DNA of 59,671 nucleotides, counting the filler. It is 6 parts of 6 records of this genome, joined end to end, with 100 filler letters (N's around TTAATTAATTAA, not from the genome) between each part and the next. Parts side by side here need not be neighbours in the genome. Positions count along the whole stretch, not along the records: positions 25,125 to 46,462 come from SRR31156797_2419; 5 more parts are not named here. One strand, written 5' to 3'. Made by a program: the position numbers and the translations under genes. This document shows, piece by piece, positions 33,972 through 45,179 of the stretch (positions are counted from its first letter, which is position 1; each line of letters starts with the position of its first letter). Below the pieces are notes generated by a model. It was given only the letters and a program-made list of their open reading frames with translations, ran no database searches and was not told the origin of the DNA.

Positions 33972-34159
33972 CAGGTTGATTATATCATCATTTTGAATTT
34001 TATAATGGTCAATTTGACCGATTAAAGTATAAGATATATAAAAGAAAAGTTGATTAATTTATATGAGTTGCACTGTAGTAGTATTTATAATGATTATATA
34101 ATGATTAAGGGGAAGTGCACTCCATTGAGTTTAAAGGGTTAAAACACAAACTTAACACG

Positions 34160-34435
34160 TTAAGGCTACATTAGTTCAAACTTTAACCCTACATTAGTTT
34201 TCACGTTAAGTCTACACTAGTTTCCCCGTTAACCCTACATTAGTTTTAAAAATGCACTTTTTTTCCTTAACCCTACATTAGTTTTTTACAATTGATTATT
34301 TTTTTAATTTTTTTTTGCATTTATAGATTAAAAATGGTAGTATTTTACTACTATTAACGTTAAAGGTACATTATAATGATGTAGGGTTAGCGTGTTTTAG
34401 TGGTGAAAAAGTACATAAATACTGTAGGGATAACG
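34160..34435. repeat. Iterons / replication origin
   Basis: TTAA(CC/GG/GT)CTACAYTAGTT at 34160, 34183, 34206, 34229 (23-bp period) and 34267; degenerate inverted copies (TGTAGGGTTAG) near 34380 and 34423; AT-rich tracts; directly upstream of rep. Confidence 0.88.
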
Positions 34436-36414: not shown

Positions 36415-37128
36415 ATGATAATCTACATTAAAAATCAAAAGGGTGGAGTAGGAAAATCTACTATCACAAAAAATTTAGCTTCAGGATTGGAAAAATTAGA
36501 AAATAAAACAGCTATTATTACTTTTGATGCTCAAAATGATAGTTTAAGAATGCTAGGCCATTTATATGAAGATGGAGATAAAGGGTTTAAGCATTTTGTA
36601 AAAACTGGTGAAGATGTTAAGATTCATGTAAGAGAAAACCTTTGGTACTATCCCCTTGAAACAGATATTTTTGCTAATAATATGAAAACTAAGATTAAAA
36701 ACTCTTTAAAGAAATTAGAAAACGAATATGATGTAATTTTAATAGATGGAGCTCCAGCATCGAATAACATTCTTGATAAAGTAGCTCTTGAATTATCAGA
36801 TAAGTTTATAGTACCTATTCAATTAAACGAAGCTTCAGTAAGAGGAATTAGTAGATTGTTAGACAATGATAAAGGTTCAGATATTGATGTGATTGTTCCA
36901 AACTTTTTTGGGAATACTAAAGTAAATAAAGAGTATTATGAAGCATTGAAAGATCATTTAGAGGAGAGTACTATAAATATTATTACTCCAATTAAAAGAA
37001 GCTCGATTGAAGAAACTCTTGCTGAAAAGGGGAAATCGATATTTGAAACTGAATCGCAAAAATCTATTGATTTACGAGAAAGATACTTAGAGCTGATAGA
37101 GGTGTTGTTTAATGAAGAAAATAGTTAA
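36415..37128 (+). CDS. parA: ParA/Soj ATPase
   Basis: KNQKGGVGKST deviant Walker A, DAQN, YDVILIDGAP. Confidence 0.93.
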   Translation: MIIYIKNQKGGVGKSTITKNLASGLEKLENKTAIITFDAQNDSLRMLGHLYEDGDKGFKHFVKTGEDVKIHVRENLWYYPLETDIFANNMKTKIKNSLKKLENEYDVILIDGAPASNNILDKVALELSDKFIVPIQLNEASVRGISRLLDNDKGSDIDVIVPNFFGNTKVNKEYYEALKDHLEESTINIITPIKRSSIEETLAEKGKSIFETESQKSIDLRERYLELIEVLFNEENS

Positions 37129-37855
37129 GTCAAATGTTGCAAACTTAAAACTTAGTAAAAAACATAAAAAAACAGCCCCACCAAAAAATAAGGAAGTAAT
37201 AGAACCTGAAATTATAGAAGATAAAGTTCCTAGTGCGGTCAACTTGACCGAAGTAGAAAAAATTGCAAATGATATTGACTTTACTTTTACTGAAGACGTT
37301 AATATAAACAACTTCTTAAAAATAAAAACAGTAGAATTATTAAATACACAAGGAAAAGCATATATTGAATTCGGAAGAATATATCAAGAAGTTTATGATA
37401 AATTAGGAGGAGACAATCATCATAATGGTTTATATACAAAATGGCTTATAGCTAATGAAATTTCTCCTAAAACAGCTCATAGGTATAGAGATAGATATAA
37501 ACTCTATAAAAAAATGAAAACTGATTCAGCAAAAACTATTATAGCAACTATTCCTCATAGAGTTATTTTAAGTGTATTGAATTCAAAAGAAAAAAAAGTT
37601 AGTATAATTAACTCTCTAAACAGAACAGATGAAGGTATGACGAGAGAGCAGCTTTTAGAAATGTTTAGTCAAGTAAAGCCAAAAAAAATTGAAAATAAAC
37701 CAAATGATATAGAATTAGCGTATAAAGAATTTAAAGAAAAGTACTCTCACTTTAACTTGGAGAAAATACCATCAAAAAAGCAAGAAAAAGCTAATCTATT
37801 ATTAGCTAAAGTAAATAAATTATTGGAGCAACTTGAAAAATTAGAAGAGAAGTAA
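37112..37855 (+). CDS. ParA partner (non-canonical ParB-like partition protein)
   Basis: Overlaps parA; GRIYQEVYD...GLYTKWL...KTAHRYRDRY HTH-like block. Confidence 0.7.
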   Translation: MKKIVKSNVANLKLSKKHKKTAPPKNKEVIEPEIIEDKVPSAVNLTEVEKIANDIDFTFTEDVNINNFLKIKTVELLNTQGKAYIEFGRIYQEVYDKLGGDNHHNGLYTKWLIANEISPKTAHRYRDRYKLYKKMKTDSAKTIIATIPHRVILSVLNSKEKKVSIINSLNRTDEGMTREQLLEMFSQVKPKKIENKPNDIELAYKEFKEKYSHFNLEKIPSKKQEKANLLLAKVNKLLEQLEKLEEK

Positions 37856-37869
37856 TTAAAACTATCTTG

Positions 37870-37891
37870 GAGTCGGAAACGGCTCTTTTTT
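37870..37891 (+). terminator. Intrinsic terminator of rep-parAB
   Basis: GAGTCG-GAAA-CGGCTC followed by T6. Confidence 0.8.
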
Positions 37892-37967
37892 ATTTTGTAG
37901 CCTATATTAAAAAAAATATTCTGAAATAAAAATTGAATTTTTTAGATTAATCTGCTAAAATAAACTA

Positions 37968-38143
37968 TAAAAGTTATGCAGGGAAAATTTAAGGGTCAAG
38001 ACGACGGCACCTTGATTTTATTAGAATTTCTCTTGACACCATTTTATTTACTAGTAACACTTAAAATATAATCAAGCCGAAAACTTAAGAGTTTTGTAAA
38101 AATTCCACGCTAAAAGTGGCATTTTTTCGGTACTCTTTTTTTT
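37968..38143 (+). ncRNA. Candidate ~175-nt small RNA
   Basis: Promoter TTGAAT-17-TAAAAT (37933-37961, extended TG); long stem-loop at 37979-38035; second stem ending in a T run at 38136-38143; no ORF. Confidence 0.4.
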
Positions 38144-38180
38144 GTTTTTAGCATTGAAAATAAAAAGTTTTAAAAAAAGC

Positions 38181-38209
38181 TTGACTTTAAAAAAAAGATA
38201 AAGTACAAT
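38181..38209 (+). promoter_or_regulatory. Sigma70-type promoter
   Basis: TTGACT-17-TACAAT. Confidence 0.8.
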
Positions 38210-38223
38210 TATCGTATAGGTAG

Positions 38224-38250
38224 TTAGCACTCATCTAAGGTGGCTGCTAA
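38224..38250 (+). promoter_or_regulatory. CIRCE (HrcA operator)
   Basis: TTAGCACTC-N9-GGCTGCTAA against consensus TTAGCACTC-N9-GAGTGCTAA (16/18), just downstream of the -10. Confidence 0.75.
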
Positions 38251-38288
38251 TAAAAATTTAAAAATAAAATAAACATAGAAAAAAACAA

Positions 38289-38573
38289 TAATGGTGAAGA
38301 TGCCATTAGATAAAGGGGGTTAAATGAAGAGAGAGAATTAGTGACGAAGAAGTCATTAGATGGTTTTAATGAGGTAAAAGATGATCTAGAAAGGTCATTT
38401 GATAGAAAAAGATTTTTGAAGGTATAGCCTAAATAAATAATAAAAGCAGAGAAAATACAGAGGACACCGAATAGAAAAGATTTTTTTAGTTGTGTCAGTC
38501 TGGTGACGGAGAAGTCATCAAATGGTGAAGATTAATACGAAGGTACACAAATTGATGGTGAAGATACTATCAA
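38289..38573 (+). repeat. Array of short hairpins with GRAGAW hexaloops in a long untranslated leader
   Basis: Hairpins at 38289-38308, 38338-38359, 38501-38520 and 38552-38573; variant at 38379-38400. Confidence 0.7.
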
Positions 38574-38659
38574 ACGTAGAAAGGAAGTAACACGATTGAA
38601 AAATTATCCAGAATACGGTTTTGTGATGCCACAAAATGAAGAAAAATAGGAGAATTAAA

Positions 38660-39433
38660 ATGGAAAATAAAACAGCAGAACAAAGAGAAGAATTGAATCA
38701 AGATTGGCTAATAAATACAATTATTACTGGTGAATTAGTAAGAGTTAGTGACAATAAAGAACTAGACTCGTTTGCATTTGAGACTTTAAACAAAGTAAAA
38801 ACAGCAAATGCAGCTAATAGAATTTCATCAGGAAAACGTCTTCAAAAACTTTTTGAAAGATGTGAACAAGAGGAAAGTAATAAAGATAAAAAACTTTATA
38901 CTAAATACCTAGAAGAGCATAACTATTCAGTAAAAACAGCTTTAAGATATAGAAATAGATACAACGTTTTTAAATTTATGAATACTGATGATTCAAAAGC
39001 TATTATTGCGTCGGTAAATGATGAAGTTATTACTGGAATCAAAAAATTAACTGATCAAAAAAGGTTTGAGCTTTTTCACGAATTAAACAATGGAATGAGT
39101 AAAGACGAGTTAATTAAAAAAATTCTACCTGAACAAGAAGAAGAAAACAAAGAAGTAACAGTTAAAGTACTTCAAGAATCAGAAAAAGTTTTTCATAAAA
39201 CGTTTACTCCTGAAACATTTGAGAATTTAAACAAATCAGAAAAAGCTAAAATTAATAAATCTTTAAAAAGTATTATTAAAGTTTATGAAGATAAAGAGAA
39301 AAGAGCGGTTAAAGAAGAGGTCGAGGCAAGACTGAAAGAAGAACGTTTGAAAATTGAAAAAGAAGTTAGAGAAAAAAGAGAATCAGAAACAATGGAACCA
39401 ATAGCTGATAGTGAGGAGCTTAGTTCAAAATAA
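38660..39433 (+). CDS. Paralogue of the ParB-like partition protein
   Basis: LYTKYL...SVKTALRYRNRY..FK.M.TDDSKAIIA aligns with LYTKWL...SPKTAHRYRDRY..YK.MKTDSAKTIIA of 37112-37855; AGGAG RBS before 38660. Confidence 0.75.
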   Translation: MENKTAEQREELNQDWLINTIITGELVRVSDNKELDSFAFETLNKVKTANAANRISSGKRLQKLFERCEQEESNKDKKLYTKYLEEHNYSVKTALRYRNRYNVFKFMNTDDSKAIIASVNDEVITGIKKLTDQKRFELFHELNNGMSKDELIKKILPEQEEENKEVTVKVLQESEKVFHKTFTPETFENLNKSEKAKINKSLKSIIKVYEDKEKRAVKEEVEARLKEERLKIEKEVREKRESETMEPIADSEELSSK

Positions 39434-39524
39434 ACAGTTAAGAGTTTTGTTAAGCTGTCTAGGGAATTATTTCTAGAAGCTTTTCAGAGCTCTTTTTATA
39501 ATGTAAAAAACGAAGGAGAACAAC

Positions 39525-39895
39525 ATGAACAACAATTCAAAAGCAGCTACCAATTAATAGATAAGGAATTCAAGCATGATACTAAATTTCTGGTTGATGC
39601 TAACGTTGCTGAACAGTTCATTCATGAAAGAATTCATTCTCATGGAAAAGTATTAACTTATAATGGAGTATAGTTTTATTCTTTTTATCAAGAAACTAAA
39701 GAGAACTCAATAGTCCTTTATGATGTTGATAAGAGAATTAGAGTCACAGATGATGCTTCTGAAATTAAGCAATTGAAATTAAATGGTTATCAAGAGTTAC
39801 TTTTATCAAAAGAGTTGGTTAATCTAAATGAAGTTCAAATGGCTAGAGCTATAATGTCGGGCCTTTATGGTGTGAAGTACAAACAAGCTTCATAG
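39525..39895 (+). pseudogene. Degraded ~120-codon gene
   Basis: AAGGAG RBS and ATG at 39525 give only 10 codons; the -1 frame is coding-like to 39895 with one internal TAG at 39671. Confidence 0.55.
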
Positions 39896-40374
39896 TGAGT
39901 TTTTAGTTGATAGGTGTGTGATGAAAACGTCATATACCTATCGGCTCAGCAAACGAACGAAAGTGAGAACGCTTAGTTTAACAGACTAACCTTTAAATAA
40001 AAATCTTAATGATAAAACTTTATAAATCAACCGTTATGACATTTGACCGTTTAAGTCTAATAAGTTTAAATGTTCAACGTCTAACAACTCTCAACCCTAA
40101 ATAAGCAGCTCTCCTAAAAGAGCAAGCGTTTATTGTTAATGATAATATAATAGCTCAATCAATTAATCGCTCACCATGACCTAGTGGCCAGTTCGCTTTT
40201 ATAGTTTAATTTAAAATCAAAGTATAATATAAATATACGACGATTAACAAATATTTTGGTTTTGAAACTAATAATTTCAATGGCTAGATAAATTATATGC
40301 ACATTTCAATTTGAAAGGACAGGATTCGACAGTTGCTTCTATAATTAGTACACTATTAATATAAAAACAAATTA

Positions 40375-41067
40375 ATGGAGGTAACAGAAGAAATGAAATA
40401 TAAAAATAGAAGTGAACTAACGATTATGGTGATAGATAATGAAACAGGAGAAATTTATGCTGATAGTAGTGAAGGATATCAAATTAAAAAAAGAGTTAAA
40501 CAGTATGAACCTCTGATTACTTCAATTAATGAAGCTAATAATGATATAAAATTAATAGAATCAAAAATTAGAAGAACTAAACAAATGAATTCTTATAAGC
40601 AAATCTATATTAAAGGTCAATATGACTCTAGAGAATTACAGGAGATAGTATGTAAATCAAATTATGGAACAGAAATTTTTCGGTTAATGAGATTAGTCAC
40701 CAGCAAATCATCAATGATAGCAAGGTCAAAAGGAAATAAAAATGTTTGTTCACTTTGGAAGGAGCTACATGAAGCACTTGAGATAAATGGTTCAAAAAAG
40801 CAAGCTGCTTTTAAGAAGTTCTGTGAAGAAAATCATATTATTAGAATGTATGAAGATAGACTCTACTTCAATCCAACTTATTATCGTGACCAAGTTTATG
40901 TAGGAATCAAAGCTTGTGGAGTTTTCAAAGATTTTACTTTGAATAGAATGAACGATTATGCGAAGCTTTACCTTTACGTCAAATGTGAATGCGTAACAGC
41001 TGAAGATATTAAAAATAGTAATTACAATCTTGAGAATGATACACCTGAGAAAACATTAATTGCTTAA
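40375..41067 (+). CDS. RepL-like (pSN2-type) wHTH replication/maintenance protein
   Basis: VIDNETGEI...NSYKQIYI...SMIA...KELHEALE...EENHIIR...LYFNPTYYR follows the RepL pattern (IDEESGEV/NFVKAYI/EEGNIIKR/LMLNP) as recalled. Confidence 0.6.
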   Translation: MEVTEEMKYKNRSELTIMVIDNETGEIYADSSEGYQIKKRVKQYEPLITSINEANNDIKLIESKIRRTKQMNSYKQIYIKGQYDSRELQEIVCKSNYGTEIFRLMRLVTSKSSMIARSKGNKNVCSLWKELHEALEINGSKKQAAFKKFCEENHIIRMYEDRLYFNPTYYRDQVYVGIKACGVFKDFTLNRMNDYAKLYLYVKCECVTAEDIKNSNYNLENDTPEKTLIA

Positions 41068-41150
41068 CCGGTAATAATAAGAGAAAATTACGTTTAAAAG
41101 GACCCTCAAGATAGTTTGTTTAGACTTAAGTATGTAAAAAATAAATTAGA

Positions 41151-41180
41151 CCTCTCTATAACAGGAGAGGATCTTTTTTT
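41151..41180 (+). terminator. Intrinsic terminator after the repL-like gene
   Basis: CCTCTC-TATAACAG-GAGAGG followed by ATCTTTTTTT. Confidence 0.7.
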
Positions 41181-41294
41181 GGAGAAAATTTATAAAAATT
41201 GGAATGGGGGGTAGGTATAAACAACAGGAGAAAAAGAAAAAAGTTTCGAGCCCCCAGGTTCAATTATTAAGACGTTATACATTTTTTTTAATAG

Positions 41295-41665
41295 ACTTCA
41301 AGTGACTAATAGAGAACGCTGATTTGTAAGTTGATGATGAACTTGAAAAAACATCAATTGACAGGAACCTTAATAAAAGAAAGAGAATACGTCTGGCTGA
41401 ACCCTTAAAGTGGCTGACTGAGCTTTTTTGCCATATACTACAACCTCGTGAAAGTCAAAACCTTCGTTCATGGAAGTTAGTATAGAGTTGCTAGTGAGTT
41501 GAGAATGCCCAAAGTATCCAAACCACCGCCTCGCCGAGAGTTAGTCTAACACCAAGTACCTCCTTGGTCGGCGGTAAGTGTTAAAAACCTTATACATGTA
41601 ATCTTTGTTGGGTTATGAGAGAGTGTAACAGTCAAATACCAGTCATTAGAAGAAAAAATTGGTGA
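41295..41665 (+). ncRNA. Candidate large structured non-coding RNA (unidentified)
   Basis: No ORF; GC higher than the plasmid background; several nested helices (see finding). Confidence 0.5.
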
Positions 41666-41689
41666 TTCGATCTGGGAGGAGGTAAGTAA

Positions 41690-41998
41690 ATGATTTATTT
41701 TATTGTGTTCATCGTGTTTTTCTGTTTGAGTGTATTTGCAATTTATTACTTTAAAAAAGTTGGGGTAATAGTGACTGGTATCTTCGTGGTGATAGCTTTG
41801 GTTAGTTATTACCCTGCGGAATTACAGGTTAAGTATTACGTGAAGATAATAGAAGTTCAGTCAGCTTATATTATTGAAAATGTTCATAAAGATGAGGATG
41901 ACAAAAAGTATAGATCTGCAAAAAGAAAAAGGTTAAAAAAAGAAAGTGAATTAAAAATCCTGGTCTTGAAAGGGAAGGTTTGGGGTTTGTTTAAGTAA
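41690..41998 (+). CDS. Small membrane protein (2 TM, basic tail)
   Basis: GGAGGAGG RBS; two hydrophobic helices. Confidence 0.75.
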   Translation: MIYFIVFIVFFCLSVFAIYYFKKVGVIVTGIFVVIALVSYYPAELQVKYYVKIIEVQSAYIIENVHKDEDDKKYRSAKRKRLKKESELKILVLKGKVWGLFK

Positions 41999-42059
41999 TG
42001 GTTTATTGGCGATTTTGGCTAATAATACTAAGAAAAAGGTTAAAAAAAGGAGGATTAAA

Positions 42060-42485
42060 ATGATAAAATTTGTAATGGTAATGATTGACGGGAAAAAGGT
42101 TGTTGTACCACTTAATATCGTAGTTGGTTTTTGTGTATGGGAGAAAGGAATAAACGAACCAAGCAGTGAAGAACACCCGAACTTCTTTAAGGAGTATGAC
42201 AATGCGAAAAAGTATTACAGAAATGCCAGAAACAGAGGTGAAGTTGTAGAGCGTCCAATGCCTTATACTTCAGGTGATGAATACAATAGAATTTTCTTTG
42301 AAGTAAAATGTCAAACTAACAACAAAGAAACGGCTACAAAAGTGGCAGGAACCGCGGTTTATAACAAGTACTTCAAAGCTGGTAAGCCGTTTAACTATAA
42401 TGAAAGAAAAGAAAGTATAAAAAAATTAAGAAAAGAGCAGCAAAATAAAAGTTCTATAAGTTATATTCATTGTGAGAGCGGGTAA
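42060..42485 (+). CDS. Hypothetical protein
   Basis: AGGAGG RBS before the ATG at 42060. Confidence 0.7.
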   Translation: MIKFVMVMIDGKKVVVPLNIVVGFCVWEKGINEPSSEEHPNFFKEYDNAKKYYRNARNRGEVVERPMPYTSGDEYNRIFFEVKCQTNNKETATKVAGTAVYNKYFKAGKPFNYNERKESIKKLRKEQQNKSSISYIHCESG

Positions 42486-42609
42486 AAATTTTAGAAAGAA
42501 CAAATTGATAAAGAATTACCTTACGAAAACTCACACCTTTTTATTTCAAGATACTCGAACACATAAAAAGAACACATTATAATATACTAATTTGTTTTAA
42601 AAAATGAAC

Positions 42610-42638
42610 TTGACTTGAAATTGTGAATGAATTATACT
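42610..42638 (+). promoter_or_regulatory. Sigma70-type promoter
   Basis: TTGACT-17-TATACT. Confidence 0.7.
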
Positions 42639-42679
42639 TTACAATAGGGATTTTAAAATTTACTAGGAGGAATTAAAAA

Positions 42680-43519
42680 GTGTTAAAGAAAATGACAGTT
42701 TTTTTATTAATTATGGAAATGTTTTTTATTTTCGGTTGCGGTAAGGAGAAAAAGGTTGAAATTTCTGTACTCTATGAGCAATTTGAAAAACAACAACTAA
42801 GTTCAAAAGGTGAAATAAGCAAATCAATTGGATACGGAGAAAATGAAGATGAAAGTTTAGCTTATTATTTTGGGAAACCTCAGCAAATAAAAACGAAAGA
42901 ATATCGTAATTTTAATTATAGTGTTGTAAATGATAAAATTATAATAACTGGTTATATAGGTAAGAATCCAGAAATTATCATACCTGAAGAAATTGAAAAT
43001 AAAACAGTTATAGGAATTGCTATGAATTCATTTAAAGATTTAGAATTAACAAAAGTAATTTTTCCAAATACAATAGAGCATATAGGTATGGGAGCATTTT
43101 ATAAAAATTATTTAGGTTATTCAAAAGAAGTAATTCTTCCTACTTCACTAAAAGTGATAGGGGAAGGTGCTTTTGCATACAATCCTATAGAAAAAATTGA
43201 TATACCTGAAAATGTAGAAACTATCGGTAGAGCAGCCTTTTATGATACCAATTTAATAAATATAAAGTTTCCAAATTCGATTAGAATAATAGGGTCTTGG
43301 GCTTTTGCTTCTAGTTATTTAAAGGAAGCTGAAATTTCTGAAAATGTAGAAATAATAGAAGAATCAGCTTTTCACCATCACAGTATAAGGAGAGGGCATA
43401 GCTTAATAATTAAAAGTGTGAAGAATTCAGTAGCTGAGGAGTATGTTAAAAATTATAATAAGTCTATTGAAGGAGATTATATTATACATCTAAAAGCTAC
43501 TTTCGAATCAATAAATTAG
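42680..43519 (+). CDS. BspA-type (LRR_5) leucine-rich repeat lipoprotein
   Basis: Lipobox IFGC; ITGYIG...IIIPEEIE; repeated LxxVxFPxxxxxIGxxAF. Confidence 0.88.
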   Translation: MLKKMTVFLLIMEMFFIFGCGKEKKVEISVLYEQFEKQQLSSKGEISKSIGYGENEDESLAYYFGKPQQIKTKEYRNFNYSVVNDKIIITGYIGKNPEIIIPEEIENKTVIGIAMNSFKDLELTKVIFPNTIEHIGMGAFYKNYLGYSKEVILPTSLKVIGEGAFAYNPIEKIDIPENVETIGRAAFYDTNLINIKFPNSIRIIGSWAFASSYLKEAEISENVEIIEESAFHHHSIRRGHSLIIKSVKNSVAEEYVKNYNKSIEGDYIIHLKATFESIN

Positions 43520-44474: not shown

Positions 44475-45179
44475 TCAGGCTTCTTCTCTCAGCTTTCTTT
44501 TGTATTTAACAAGTGTTGGTTTGCTTACTCTATATGCTTCCATGAACTCTTTATCTGTCATTGAACCACCGAATGCTCGACTGTGCTTCTTCAAGTTCTC
44601 TTGAATCAGCTGTCCTCTTTTAGTTGTCCAAGAATCACCTTTTTGCGTTCCAATTCTCTTACCTGCTGCTCTAGCTCTTTCTATTCCTTCTTTAGTTCGT
44701 ACTCTTAAATCCTCAACTTCTTTTTCTGATTGTTCAAAAGCTTGTCTTACTTGTTCTTTGGCTTGAATTACTAGGATATTCCTAATAAATTTTTCAGTTT
44801 CTTTGATGAGTTCACTTTCAGCGTTTAAACTAATTTTTAAACTATTCTCTATTTGCTCTTTAATAAGCTCAGAGTTAATATGGGCCTCTTTAAGAAATAC
44901 TAACTTGATTCCCTCATCCATCAATTCGAAATAGTCTGTTTGCCCTTCAGCAGCGTTTCTTGACATTCTACTGATTGAATCAAAGACAATAGTGTCTTCT
45001 GGATTCACTACTTTCAATAATCTTTGAAATTCTCTCCTGTCTTGAGTTGTACCAGTAAACTTTTCTCTATAGATGACCATACCTTCAGAGAACTTCTCTA
45101 AATTGTGTATTTGCCGTTCTATCTTTTGAAGCTCTGTACTTACCCTGGCATATCCATAAATCATTTCAATCAACTCCAA
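44475..45179 (-). CDS. Serine recombinase (resolvase)
   Basis: YGYARVST..Q...RQ, EKFTG, DTIVFDSISRMSR, RTKEGI..AR..G. Confidence 0.93.
   Translation of the reverse strand: MELIEMIYGYARVSTELQKIERQIHNLEKFSEGMVIYREKFTGTTQDRREFQRLLKVVNPEDTIVFDSISRMSRNAAEGQTDYFELMDEGIKLVFLKEAHINSELIKEQIENSLKISLNAESELIKETEKFIRNILVIQAKEQVRQAFEQSEKEVEDLRVRTKEGIERARAAGKRIGTQKGDSWTTKRGQLIQENLKKHSRAFGGSMTDKEFMEAYRVSKPTLVKYKRKLREEA

Follow-up and report, generated by a model that had tools for sequence, protein, structure and literature searches.

The locus described here poses a question: what is a plasmid that already has a complete replicon doing with a second partition-type gene, a heat-shock-type operator and a gene resembling those of replication proteins directly behind it? 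It lies in a stretch of 59,671 nucleotides (nt) of joined DNA, the whole of which was analysed and is called the window below. The window is AT-rich, with about 29% GC. The region under study spans 4.3 kb (38181-42485), comes after a Fusobacteria-type plasmid replicon at around 34-37 kb, and is read entirely on the + strand. A sequence-only reading had seen in it a single stress-inducible, RNA-rich module for replication and partition. We favour, at a probability of roughly 45% and thus at somewhat less than even odds, a mosaic and partly decayed second maintenance cassette beside a working iteron replicon (rep, parA and a parB-like gene). What is new is the wiring of known parts, an operator of the CIRCE type (controlling inverted repeat for chaperone expression) together with a partition-type gene, and not the parts themselves.

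The replicon is complete, as had been stated before. Its iterons, four to six 23-bp repeats at 34147-34373, lie upstream of the region and are followed by the gene for an initiator of 624 amino acids (aa). Among 72,556 plasmids, relatives of this initiator were found only in 11 Cetobacterium somerae records and in one Sebaldella record, where the protein is annotated "replication initiator protein A". After the initiator gene comes a gene for a ParA ATPase (36415-37128; Pfam AAA_31/CbiA), and 3' of parA lies the first ParB-like gene (37112-37855; 247 aa, without a Pfam family). The rep-parA-parB operon ends at a true terminator (37869-37896).

In the reading that we favour, the region behind this operon would hold at least three units. 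The first would start at a strong sigma-70-type promoter with the CIRCE operator among the first transcribed bases. From the chaperone operons of the same phylum we infer, by analogy, that host HrcA occupies the operator at normal temperature and leaves it under heat or protein-folding stress, which would wire the ParB-like gene into the host HrcA heat-shock regulon. The predicted transcript would carry a leader of roughly 440 nt with five similar stem-loops, the orphan ParB-like gene and a long terminator. The orphan protein, without a ParA of its own, would most likely be a DNA-binding partition or regulatory factor whose supply goes up under stress. A dead small gene and then a 17-bp stem would form the second unit. 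The third would be a separately terminated winged-helix gene, a remote relation of RepL that has a homologue in a Fusobacterium phage and may represent a leftover or serve as an auxiliary initiator. The features that carry this reading are:

38181-38209, + strand: sigma-70-type promoter (TTGACT, 17-nt spacer, TACAAT; 10 of 12 consensus positions)
38224-38250, + strand: CIRCE-like HrcA operator (16 of 18 consensus positions; begins 14 nt after the -10 hexamer)
38289-38573, + strand: array of five stem-loops with stems of 7-8 bp, from a scan for purine-hexaloop hairpins
38636-39433, + strand: orphan paralogue of the ParA-partner ("ParB-like") protein, 265 aa, from protein comparison with the window's first copy
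40375-41067, + strand: winged-helix protein of 230 aa, remotely related to RepL replication proteins by profile-profile comparison

The operator has 2 mismatches to TTAGCACTC-N9-GAGTGCTAA and is the window's sole match at three mismatches or fewer; none of 100 dinucleotide shuffles gave a match. The relaxed HrcA-binding form TAGCA-N15-TGCTAA, which PMC8762339 cites from De Barsy et al., is matched exactly. We compared the site with four Fusobacteriota genomes, which had been reached via loci collected for another purpose. All four encode HrcA and contain 1-4 CIRCE sites each at two mismatches or fewer, against 0 for a reversed-pattern control. These sites sit 5' of hrcA, groES-groEL and, with 2 mismatches, htpG. 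Where they vary, the changes fall on inner half-site positions and the outer TTAGCA is mostly kept, and the window's site behaves likewise. Its layout of -35 box, -10 box and operator is identical to that of seven hrcA, groES and htpG promoters in these genomes, in which, by our reading, the operator starts about 9-15 nt after the -10 box. Because of the consensus match, the shuffle test and this promoter layout, the operator is real as judged by sequence and position. The earlier claim of a promoter with a stress-type (HrcA/CIRCE) operator in the canonical position behind it is thus borne out. What is unusual about the operator is its target and its distance from the start codon. The first gene after it is the ParB-like paralogue and not a chaperone or protease, no chaperone remnant was found in the leader, and 410-435 nt separate operator and start codon. 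Literature searches on these two topics only, CIRCE/HrcA with plasmid partition and DUF3102 with ParA, found no paper on a CIRCE-controlled plasmid partition gene.

Two observations on CIRCE sites were made in passing. In a metagenome-assembled genome of Psychrilyobacter, a site with two inner mismatches (L021 1501-1527; G001:C175) lies 21 nt 5' of htpG (Hsp90), which suggests from its placement that htpG belongs to the HrcA regulon there. Two perfect sites also occur near ParB-like genes in loci L009 and L034, on the strand opposite to the par genes. They were rejected as par operators, as they belong to the adjoining groES-groEL operons on the other strand.

The gene behind the operator encodes a protein that is 33% identical over 116 aa (E = 1e-14) to the product of the first ParB-like gene, so the sequence-only reading named it correctly. 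Its likelier start is ATG 38660, preceded by an AGGAG ribosome-binding site. The orphan appears intact: it retains all 14 invariant columns of the family alignment (A2) and has the conserved core around TALRYRNRY in common with the family. It is also the most divergent copy, with 24-28% identity to the other members over that alignment and an additional acidic/basic C-terminal tail. No Pfam or NCBIfam family matches it at E ≤ 0.1, hence no ParBc or helix-turn-helix ParB domain, and a word-index protein search with the 265-aa protein returned nothing. Language-model look-alikes of the family belong to DUF3102 or UPF0137 for a minority of members and serve as leads only.

Two plasmids of a cold-seep Fusobacteria isolate and one Fusobacterium hwasookii plasmid carry relatives of the family, as do four genome contigs and ten metagenome contigs (metagenome scan with the ParB-like alignment). 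Of these 17 loci, 13 are at least 7 kb long and 4 are under 4 kb, and several are near-duplicates (L003/L029 and L008/L035 have identical tblastn statistics). Each holds a single ParB-like copy, and in all 17 a ParA gene ends just 5' of it. Hence, the family is a ParA partner. By tblastn, the window's first copy is much nearer to these loci (E down to 1e-33) than the orphan is (1e-13). The orphan is the only copy seen without ParA directly upstream: its upstream neighbour is 780 nt of non-coding DNA, and the nearest ParA gene (36415-37128) is already paired with its own partner.

In two of the loci, both Fusobacterium-type contigs (L009 7066-10580 and L034 7223-10751), the parA/ParB-like pair adjoins a solute-binding protein gene and is convergent to groEL-groES with the perfect CIRCE. 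This setting looks chromosomal, and the ParA-partner family is therefore not confined to plasmids. On plasmid pZRK30-1 (L002), the ParB-like relative at 5875-6561 matches UPF0137, the family of the Chlamydia plasmid protein Pgp6, weakly and below the cut-off (E = 0.0015). In Chlamydia, pgp6 and four others of the eight plasmid genes are reported to go up upon heat shock (PMC8762339).

The 230-aa protein has few relatives. It matches nothing in Pfam (including RepL), NCBIfam or PHROGs, the PHROGs scan of the region's proteins giving nothing beyond E 0.006, and nothing in the word-index protein search. With tblastn, neither the protein nor its relative P0001 has a match among the 72,556 plasmid records. 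HMMER, run in full over 1.84 billion representatives, recovered 21 distant relatives, the best of them at E = 3.9e-13; they come mostly from Logan assemblies and, together with the window's protein, form a family of 22 members. None of the 22 matches the Pfam RepL model (PF05732; gathering threshold 20.3 bits), even at E ≤ 10. Of 190 Fusobacteriota genomes searched with a profile, three yielded weak fragments and the others nothing, and scans of viral contigs with P0004 and with the RepL alignment (A5) gave no confirmed relative. One homologue (E = 1e-12) lies in the early region of Fusobacterium phage phiKSUM, where it adjoins Rha and anti-repressor genes.

An AlphaFold model built with the alignment reached a predicted local distance difference test (pLDDT) score of 81.5, against 36.9 for the single-sequence fold, and its confident core (residues about 80-175) is a winged helix. 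The best solved matches by VIA-align are generic (Z ≤ 5.1; the ORC2 winged-helix domain and MarR/Crp-type domains), and Foldseek found no match at E ≤ 0.001 in PDB and BFVD. In a profile-profile comparison, the family was set against 11 true RepL proteins: three strong matches from Fusobacteriota genomes and eight from diverse plasmids. With hhalign, the local alignment has a probability of 73% (score 38.9) and the global alignment one of 92.9% (score 42.95), with the N-terminal TGE motifs aligned. Control scores were 20.9 for the reversed RepL alignment, at most 18.35 for 30 column-shuffled alignments, and 16.8 and 17.7 for two pairs of alignments unrelated to each other. In the alignments of the family and of RepL alike, the TGE motif is near-invariant and an NP motif invariant, and each motif is aligned with its counterpart; the three strong RepL matches in Fusobacteriota genomes have the same N-terminal TGE and post-wing NP motif. 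The family differs in having about 50 residues inserted between its TGE motif and winged helix. Because the profile-profile scores are far above the controls, the 230-aa protein is, by sequence comparison, a remote RepL relative. The earlier label "RepL-like gene" holds in this remote sense and does not extend to the Pfam RepL model.

This model itself gave a further observation. In loci L039, L043, L044 and L047 it scores just above its cut-off (20-27 bits) on the helix-turn-helix of 220-250-aa proteins. By their N-terminal sequence, these marginal matches look like Crp-/GntR-type regulators of Fusobacteriota. Marginal RepL calls in Fusobacteriota are therefore unreliable.

The relationship to RepL opens the first alternative, a functional second replicon. 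Here, the RepL-like protein would fire an origin in or beside its own gene, as P1 RepL does, the ParB-like paralogue would serve partition or control, and release of HrcA under stress would alter copy number or segregation. A plasmid of 1,527 bp (Selenomonas pONE430) has RepL as its sole annotated gene, and 268 plasmid records carry one; therefore, the RepL superfamily does initiate replication. In phage P1, the origin used by RepL is located within repL and requires an AT-rich tract (PMC9948254). In front of the RepL-like gene lies a spacer:

39951-40374, no strand assigned: non-coding spacer 5' of the gene; GC skew negative, trough of 16% GC at 40200-40279

We found no iterons beside the RepL-like gene (39890-40400) and no DnaA boxes in 37800-42700. 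RepL-type origins need neither, and their absence therefore does not exclude an origin here. The segment 39920-40280 is the only stretch of negative GC skew in the + strand block at 25-44 kb; it ends at the trough of 40200-40279, with a local skew minimum at about 40240, and a second trough (40520-40599; 19% GC) lies inside the gene. These troughs are weak evidence for an origin, being unremarkable in DNA of 29% GC. Paired single-strand-initiation (ssi)-like motifs, which the sequence-only reading had placed here, turned out to be two short two-copy direct repeats in 39890-40400 (21 nt at 76% identity, and 10 nt). Folding of 39990-40130 gives sliding-window z scores of -2.3 to +0.9 on the + strand and is not significant on the - strand.

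The gene itself is intact and has its own terminator, and the CIRCE promoter is real. Replication activity of its product is possible. Against the second replicon, the CIRCE promoter is cut off from the RepL-like gene by a terminator and a pseudogene, no co-occurrence of the parts was seen elsewhere, and the family is missing from the plasmid records searched with two of its members, reduced to fragments in 3 of 190 genomes, and unmatched by Pfam RepL in all 22 members. We consider this alternative unlikely.

Within the same spacer, a terminator-like hairpin lies on the - strand (40123-40108). A - strand counter-transcript at 40100-40230 was considered and dropped: the fold is not significant (z -1.81) and promoter-like matches are at chance level (24 versus 19.8 expected).

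A second alternative takes the same protein as a phage-derived winged-helix transcription regulator, an early-region switch or exclusion function, without a role in replication, and the region as ordinary accessory cargo. The winged-helix core with its generic solved matches would suit this, as would the Rha and anti-repressor neighbours of the phage homologue, and the matches of the Pfam RepL model to Crp-/GntR-like proteins indicate that the fold is common to regulators. Against it stand a colinear RepL match that extends past the helix-turn-helix and includes the TGE and NP motifs, and the far lower hhalign scores of unrelated or shuffled alignments. We give this explanation little weight.

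The third alternative concerns the leader. Plasmid centromeres beside par genes are usually arrays of short inverted repeats, for example sopC of F, and many plasmids have their partition site 3' of parB. The hairpin array could accordingly be a duplex-DNA centromere or operator, in which five imperfect palindromes are bound by one or both ParB-like proteins and provide the plasmid's own par system with its partition site; it would then be no RNA leader. The position is suitable, as the array starts 434 nt after the first ParB-like gene and directly 5' of the second. Its 16-nt hairpin core occurs, at one mismatch or fewer, four times in the array and once elsewhere in the window.

The hairpins themselves point in another direction. 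The array, noted before in the sequence-only reading, comprises five of them within 38289-38573, in a leader of roughly 440 nt between promoter and ParB-like paralogue; their hexaloops are, in order, GAAGAT, GAAGAA, TAGAAA, GGAGAA and GAAGAT. Elsewhere, the + strand of the window has just two weak purine-hexaloop hairpins (5-bp stems), and block shuffles contain on average 1.3 such hairpins (stem ≥ 5) per strand over the whole 59.7-kb window. The leader (38210-38640) folds with z = -4.26, a stability that 0 of 100 shuffles equalled, and sliding-window folding is far stronger on the + strand than on the - strand. By our count, 7 of the 38 stem pairs are G-T, which become A-C mismatches on the opposite strand, and therefore the + strand folds better. 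From copy to copy the arms vary in concert and the loop is nearly unchanged, in a comparison of five copies within one sequence. This signature of base pairing, and not of identical half-sites, is suggestive, although not proof, of pairing in + strand RNA or single-stranded DNA and not of a protein binding duplex half-sites. In addition, none of 20 related loci (225 kb in total) has a comparable array, including near the par genes of the 17 loci. A centromere is thus improbable to about the same degree as the regulator. Two further ideas about the leader were dropped: a hairpin motif common to other par loci, as none was found, and a decayed chaperone or repeat-peptide gene, as by our reading the frames are broken and the repeats fall in differing frames.

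A fourth alternative, in which the CIRCE match arose by chance or survives as a fossil without function and the promoter is constitutive, is very unlikely: the two mismatches in one arm, the non-chaperone gene and the unusually long leader would fit, against which stand the shuffles without a match at three mismatches or fewer, a position and layout as in host-type chaperone promoters, and the htpG site of a relative with two mismatches at the same inner positions.

Several points weigh against the cassette that we favour. The operator has its two mismatches and lies 410 nt from the first possible start codon, compared with about 20-70 nt in the chaperone operons of relatives (our reading), and the presence of HrcA in the actual host is assumed by analogy with these relatives. 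A remnant of another replicon is without direct support. We found no repeats flanking the region, for which reason an inserted element with such repeats was dropped, and no composition break at the region. At the DNA level, 38000-42600 has no relative in PLSDB, searched in near and distant modes, or among phages, searched in distant mode. The RepL-like gene, intact and with its own terminator, fits a working gene as well as a leftover. A search of sequencing runs found the stretch only in the probable source DNA run, and no RNA run was listed. Lastly, the co-occurrence test described next is weaker than the number 17 suggests, because some loci are near-duplicates and some are short.

Whether the parts form one system was examined by their arrangement and their company. 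Terminators at about 39440-39500 and 41151-41180 and the pseudogene split the region; therefore, it contains at least 3 separate units and not one operon. None of the 17 ParB-like loci has a relative of the RepL-like gene, the 102-aa ORF, the 159-aa ORF or the decayed ORF (ORF, open reading frame), and none has a CIRCE upstream of its par genes. Conversely, the 16.4 kb of phage phiKSUM that were examined contain the RepL-like gene and no ParB-like match. As the parts do not co-occur elsewhere, the claim of one system fails on present data. The individual parts stand, as sequence features and as family relationships. The same reading had described about half of the region as structured non-coding DNA. 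The region is indeed gene-poor, with a coding fraction of 51% against a window median of 84% (6th lowest among 277 sliding windows), while significant structure is found in only about a third of its non-coding DNA, as estimated from sliding-window folding. The other features of the region are:

about 39433-39500 (stem 39440-39493), + strand: long intrinsic terminator of the ParB-like paralogue (z -4.85, then a U run)
39525-39895, + strand: decayed small ORF with one frameshift and one in-frame TAG
39905-39950, + strand: 17-bp stem-loop with five G-U pairs and without a U run (z -5.52)
41151-41180 (hairpin 41151-41170 and T run), + strand: intrinsic terminator of the RepL-like gene, from a terminator scan
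41181-41689, no strand assigned: 510-nt non-coding stretch, not detectably structured and without a long open frame
41690-41998, + strand: 102-aa ORF with a GGAGG ribosome-binding site; by our reading, a hydrophobic N-terminal half and a basic C-terminal tail
42006-42485, + strand: 159-aa ORF; likelier start ATG 42060 (141 aa) with a GGAGG site

The two long stems, the decayed ORF and the terminator behind the RepL-like gene had all been recognized before, and each was recovered. The stem at 39440-39493 is an intrinsic terminator because a U run comes after it. Beyond the TAA of the 265-aa ORF, the frame remains open for 79 codons through this hairpin (39434-39673). An open run of at least 79 codons occurred in 850 of 5000 shuffles, and the read-on frame is therefore probably due to chance. 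The decayed ORF has a Shine-Dalgarno site and an ATG at 39525 and stops after ten codons; the adjoining frame is open for 79 and 73 codons on either side of a single TAG, and an in-frame pair of this kind was found in 5 of 5000 shuffles. It has no relatives in plasmids (tblastn) or PHROGs. The stem at 39905-39950 is strand-specific, with -43.7 kcal/mol on the + strand and -20.0 kcal/mol on the - strand.

A large structured RNA had been proposed for 41180-41690, and it did not hold up. This stretch folds with z = +1.14, 90 of 100 shuffles fold at least equally well, no sliding window within it falls below z -1.73, and Rfam gives no match at the gathering score or at E ≤ 10. An RNA-based control element at 41.2-41.7 kb thus finds no support. 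Of the G6/C5 tract, both runs are in the sequence, and a significance was not shown. The two ORFs that follow had been called orphan genes: both have good ribosome-binding sites, the 102-aa ORF has no significant match in Pfam, NCBIfam and PHROGs (the only libraries compared), and for the 141/159-aa protein neither these libraries nor the word-index search gave a relative. The 102-aa membrane-protein ORF contains a strongly folded, + strand-specific segment (41760-41880; -35.8 kcal/mol; z -4.1) that is reminiscent of small membrane toxins, whose mRNAs are structured. At the 3' end of this ORF and again just 5' of ATG 42060 lie the two copies of an exact 20-nt direct repeat (41923-41942 and 42030-42049).

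In the neighbourhood, a second long hairpin with a U8 tail (38078-38145; z -2.86) lies past the terminator of the rep-parA-parB operon. Its outer stem sequence is common to it and the terminator at 39440-39500, so the two are paralogous. On its 5' side are TTGACA (38033) and TATAAT (38058) with a 19-nt spacer, and from these motifs 38033-38145 could hold a gene, some 75 nt long, for a small RNA. On the - strand, 2 kb 3' of the region, a gene for a serine recombinase (resolvase; 44475-45179) is probably the multimer-resolution function of the plasmid. Thermonuclease and HNH genes lie upstream of rep; on the cold-seep Fusobacteria plasmids, too, thermonuclease genes adjoin rep.

Set beside known systems, the parts are familiar and their combination is not. 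Unit 1 resembles the HrcA-CIRCE regulon of Gram-positives, Chlamydia and Fusobacteriota (hrcA-grpE-dnaK, groESL) in the operator, 16/18 with the outer TAGCA...TGCTAA exact, and in its position just 3' of a sigma-70-type -10 box. It differs in that the operator is a predicted one, the target is a partition-type gene and not a chaperone, the unit is plasmid-borne, and operator and gene are set apart by about 440 nt of leader that carries five stem-loops. The orphan resembles the ParA-partner family of Fusobacteriota plasmids in its TALRYRNRY core and 14 invariant columns, and differs from it by the missing upstream ParA, its divergence and its tail; unlike canonical ParB, it has no Pfam ParBc match. 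The 230-aa protein has TGE, winged helix and NP motif in the same order as RepL (73% local, 93% global), from which it differs by its scores below the Pfam threshold in 22 of 22 members, its insert of about 50 residues and its absence from the 72,556 plasmid records.

In the lytic replicon of phage P1, a promoter gated by the repressor C1 lies 5' of repL. As a working analogy only, the region would share with it a repressor-controlled promoter 5' of a RepL-type gene and AT-rich tracts in or beside that gene. Here, a terminator and a pseudogene intervene, and the repressor would be the heat-shock regulator of the host. Carried further, this leads to a host-stress-gated auxiliary replicon: inactivation of HrcA by heat or protein-folding stress would fire the CIRCE promoter, whose products, the RNA of the hairpin array and the orphan ParB-like protein, would switch on or release a RepL-type origin in or near 40200-41067, giving a copy-number burst or an escape route. 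We regard this as a long shot. If true, it would be a plasmid counterpart of the repressor-gated lytic replicon of P1 with the chaperone regulon as sensor, and the five stem-loops with their similar loops would make up a regulatory leader of a new kind that binds protein or RNA.

For the mosaic cassette that we favour, the significance lies in the wiring. Normally, the HrcA regulon comprises chaperone genes as a small and closed set, and a partition-type gene behind a CIRCE would mean that a mobile element senses the protein-folding stress of its host. A CIRCE-controlled partition gene would therefore bear on the timing of maintenance functions by plasmids. With its conserved purine loop, the five-fold stem-loop array is a clean candidate for a new regulatory leader, known from one sequence so far. 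To our knowledge, few replication and maintenance parts have been described for Fusobacteriota, and the small, mostly metagenomic and phage-linked family now tied to RepL initiators may supply more candidate replication proteins from Fusobacteriota plasmids and phages.

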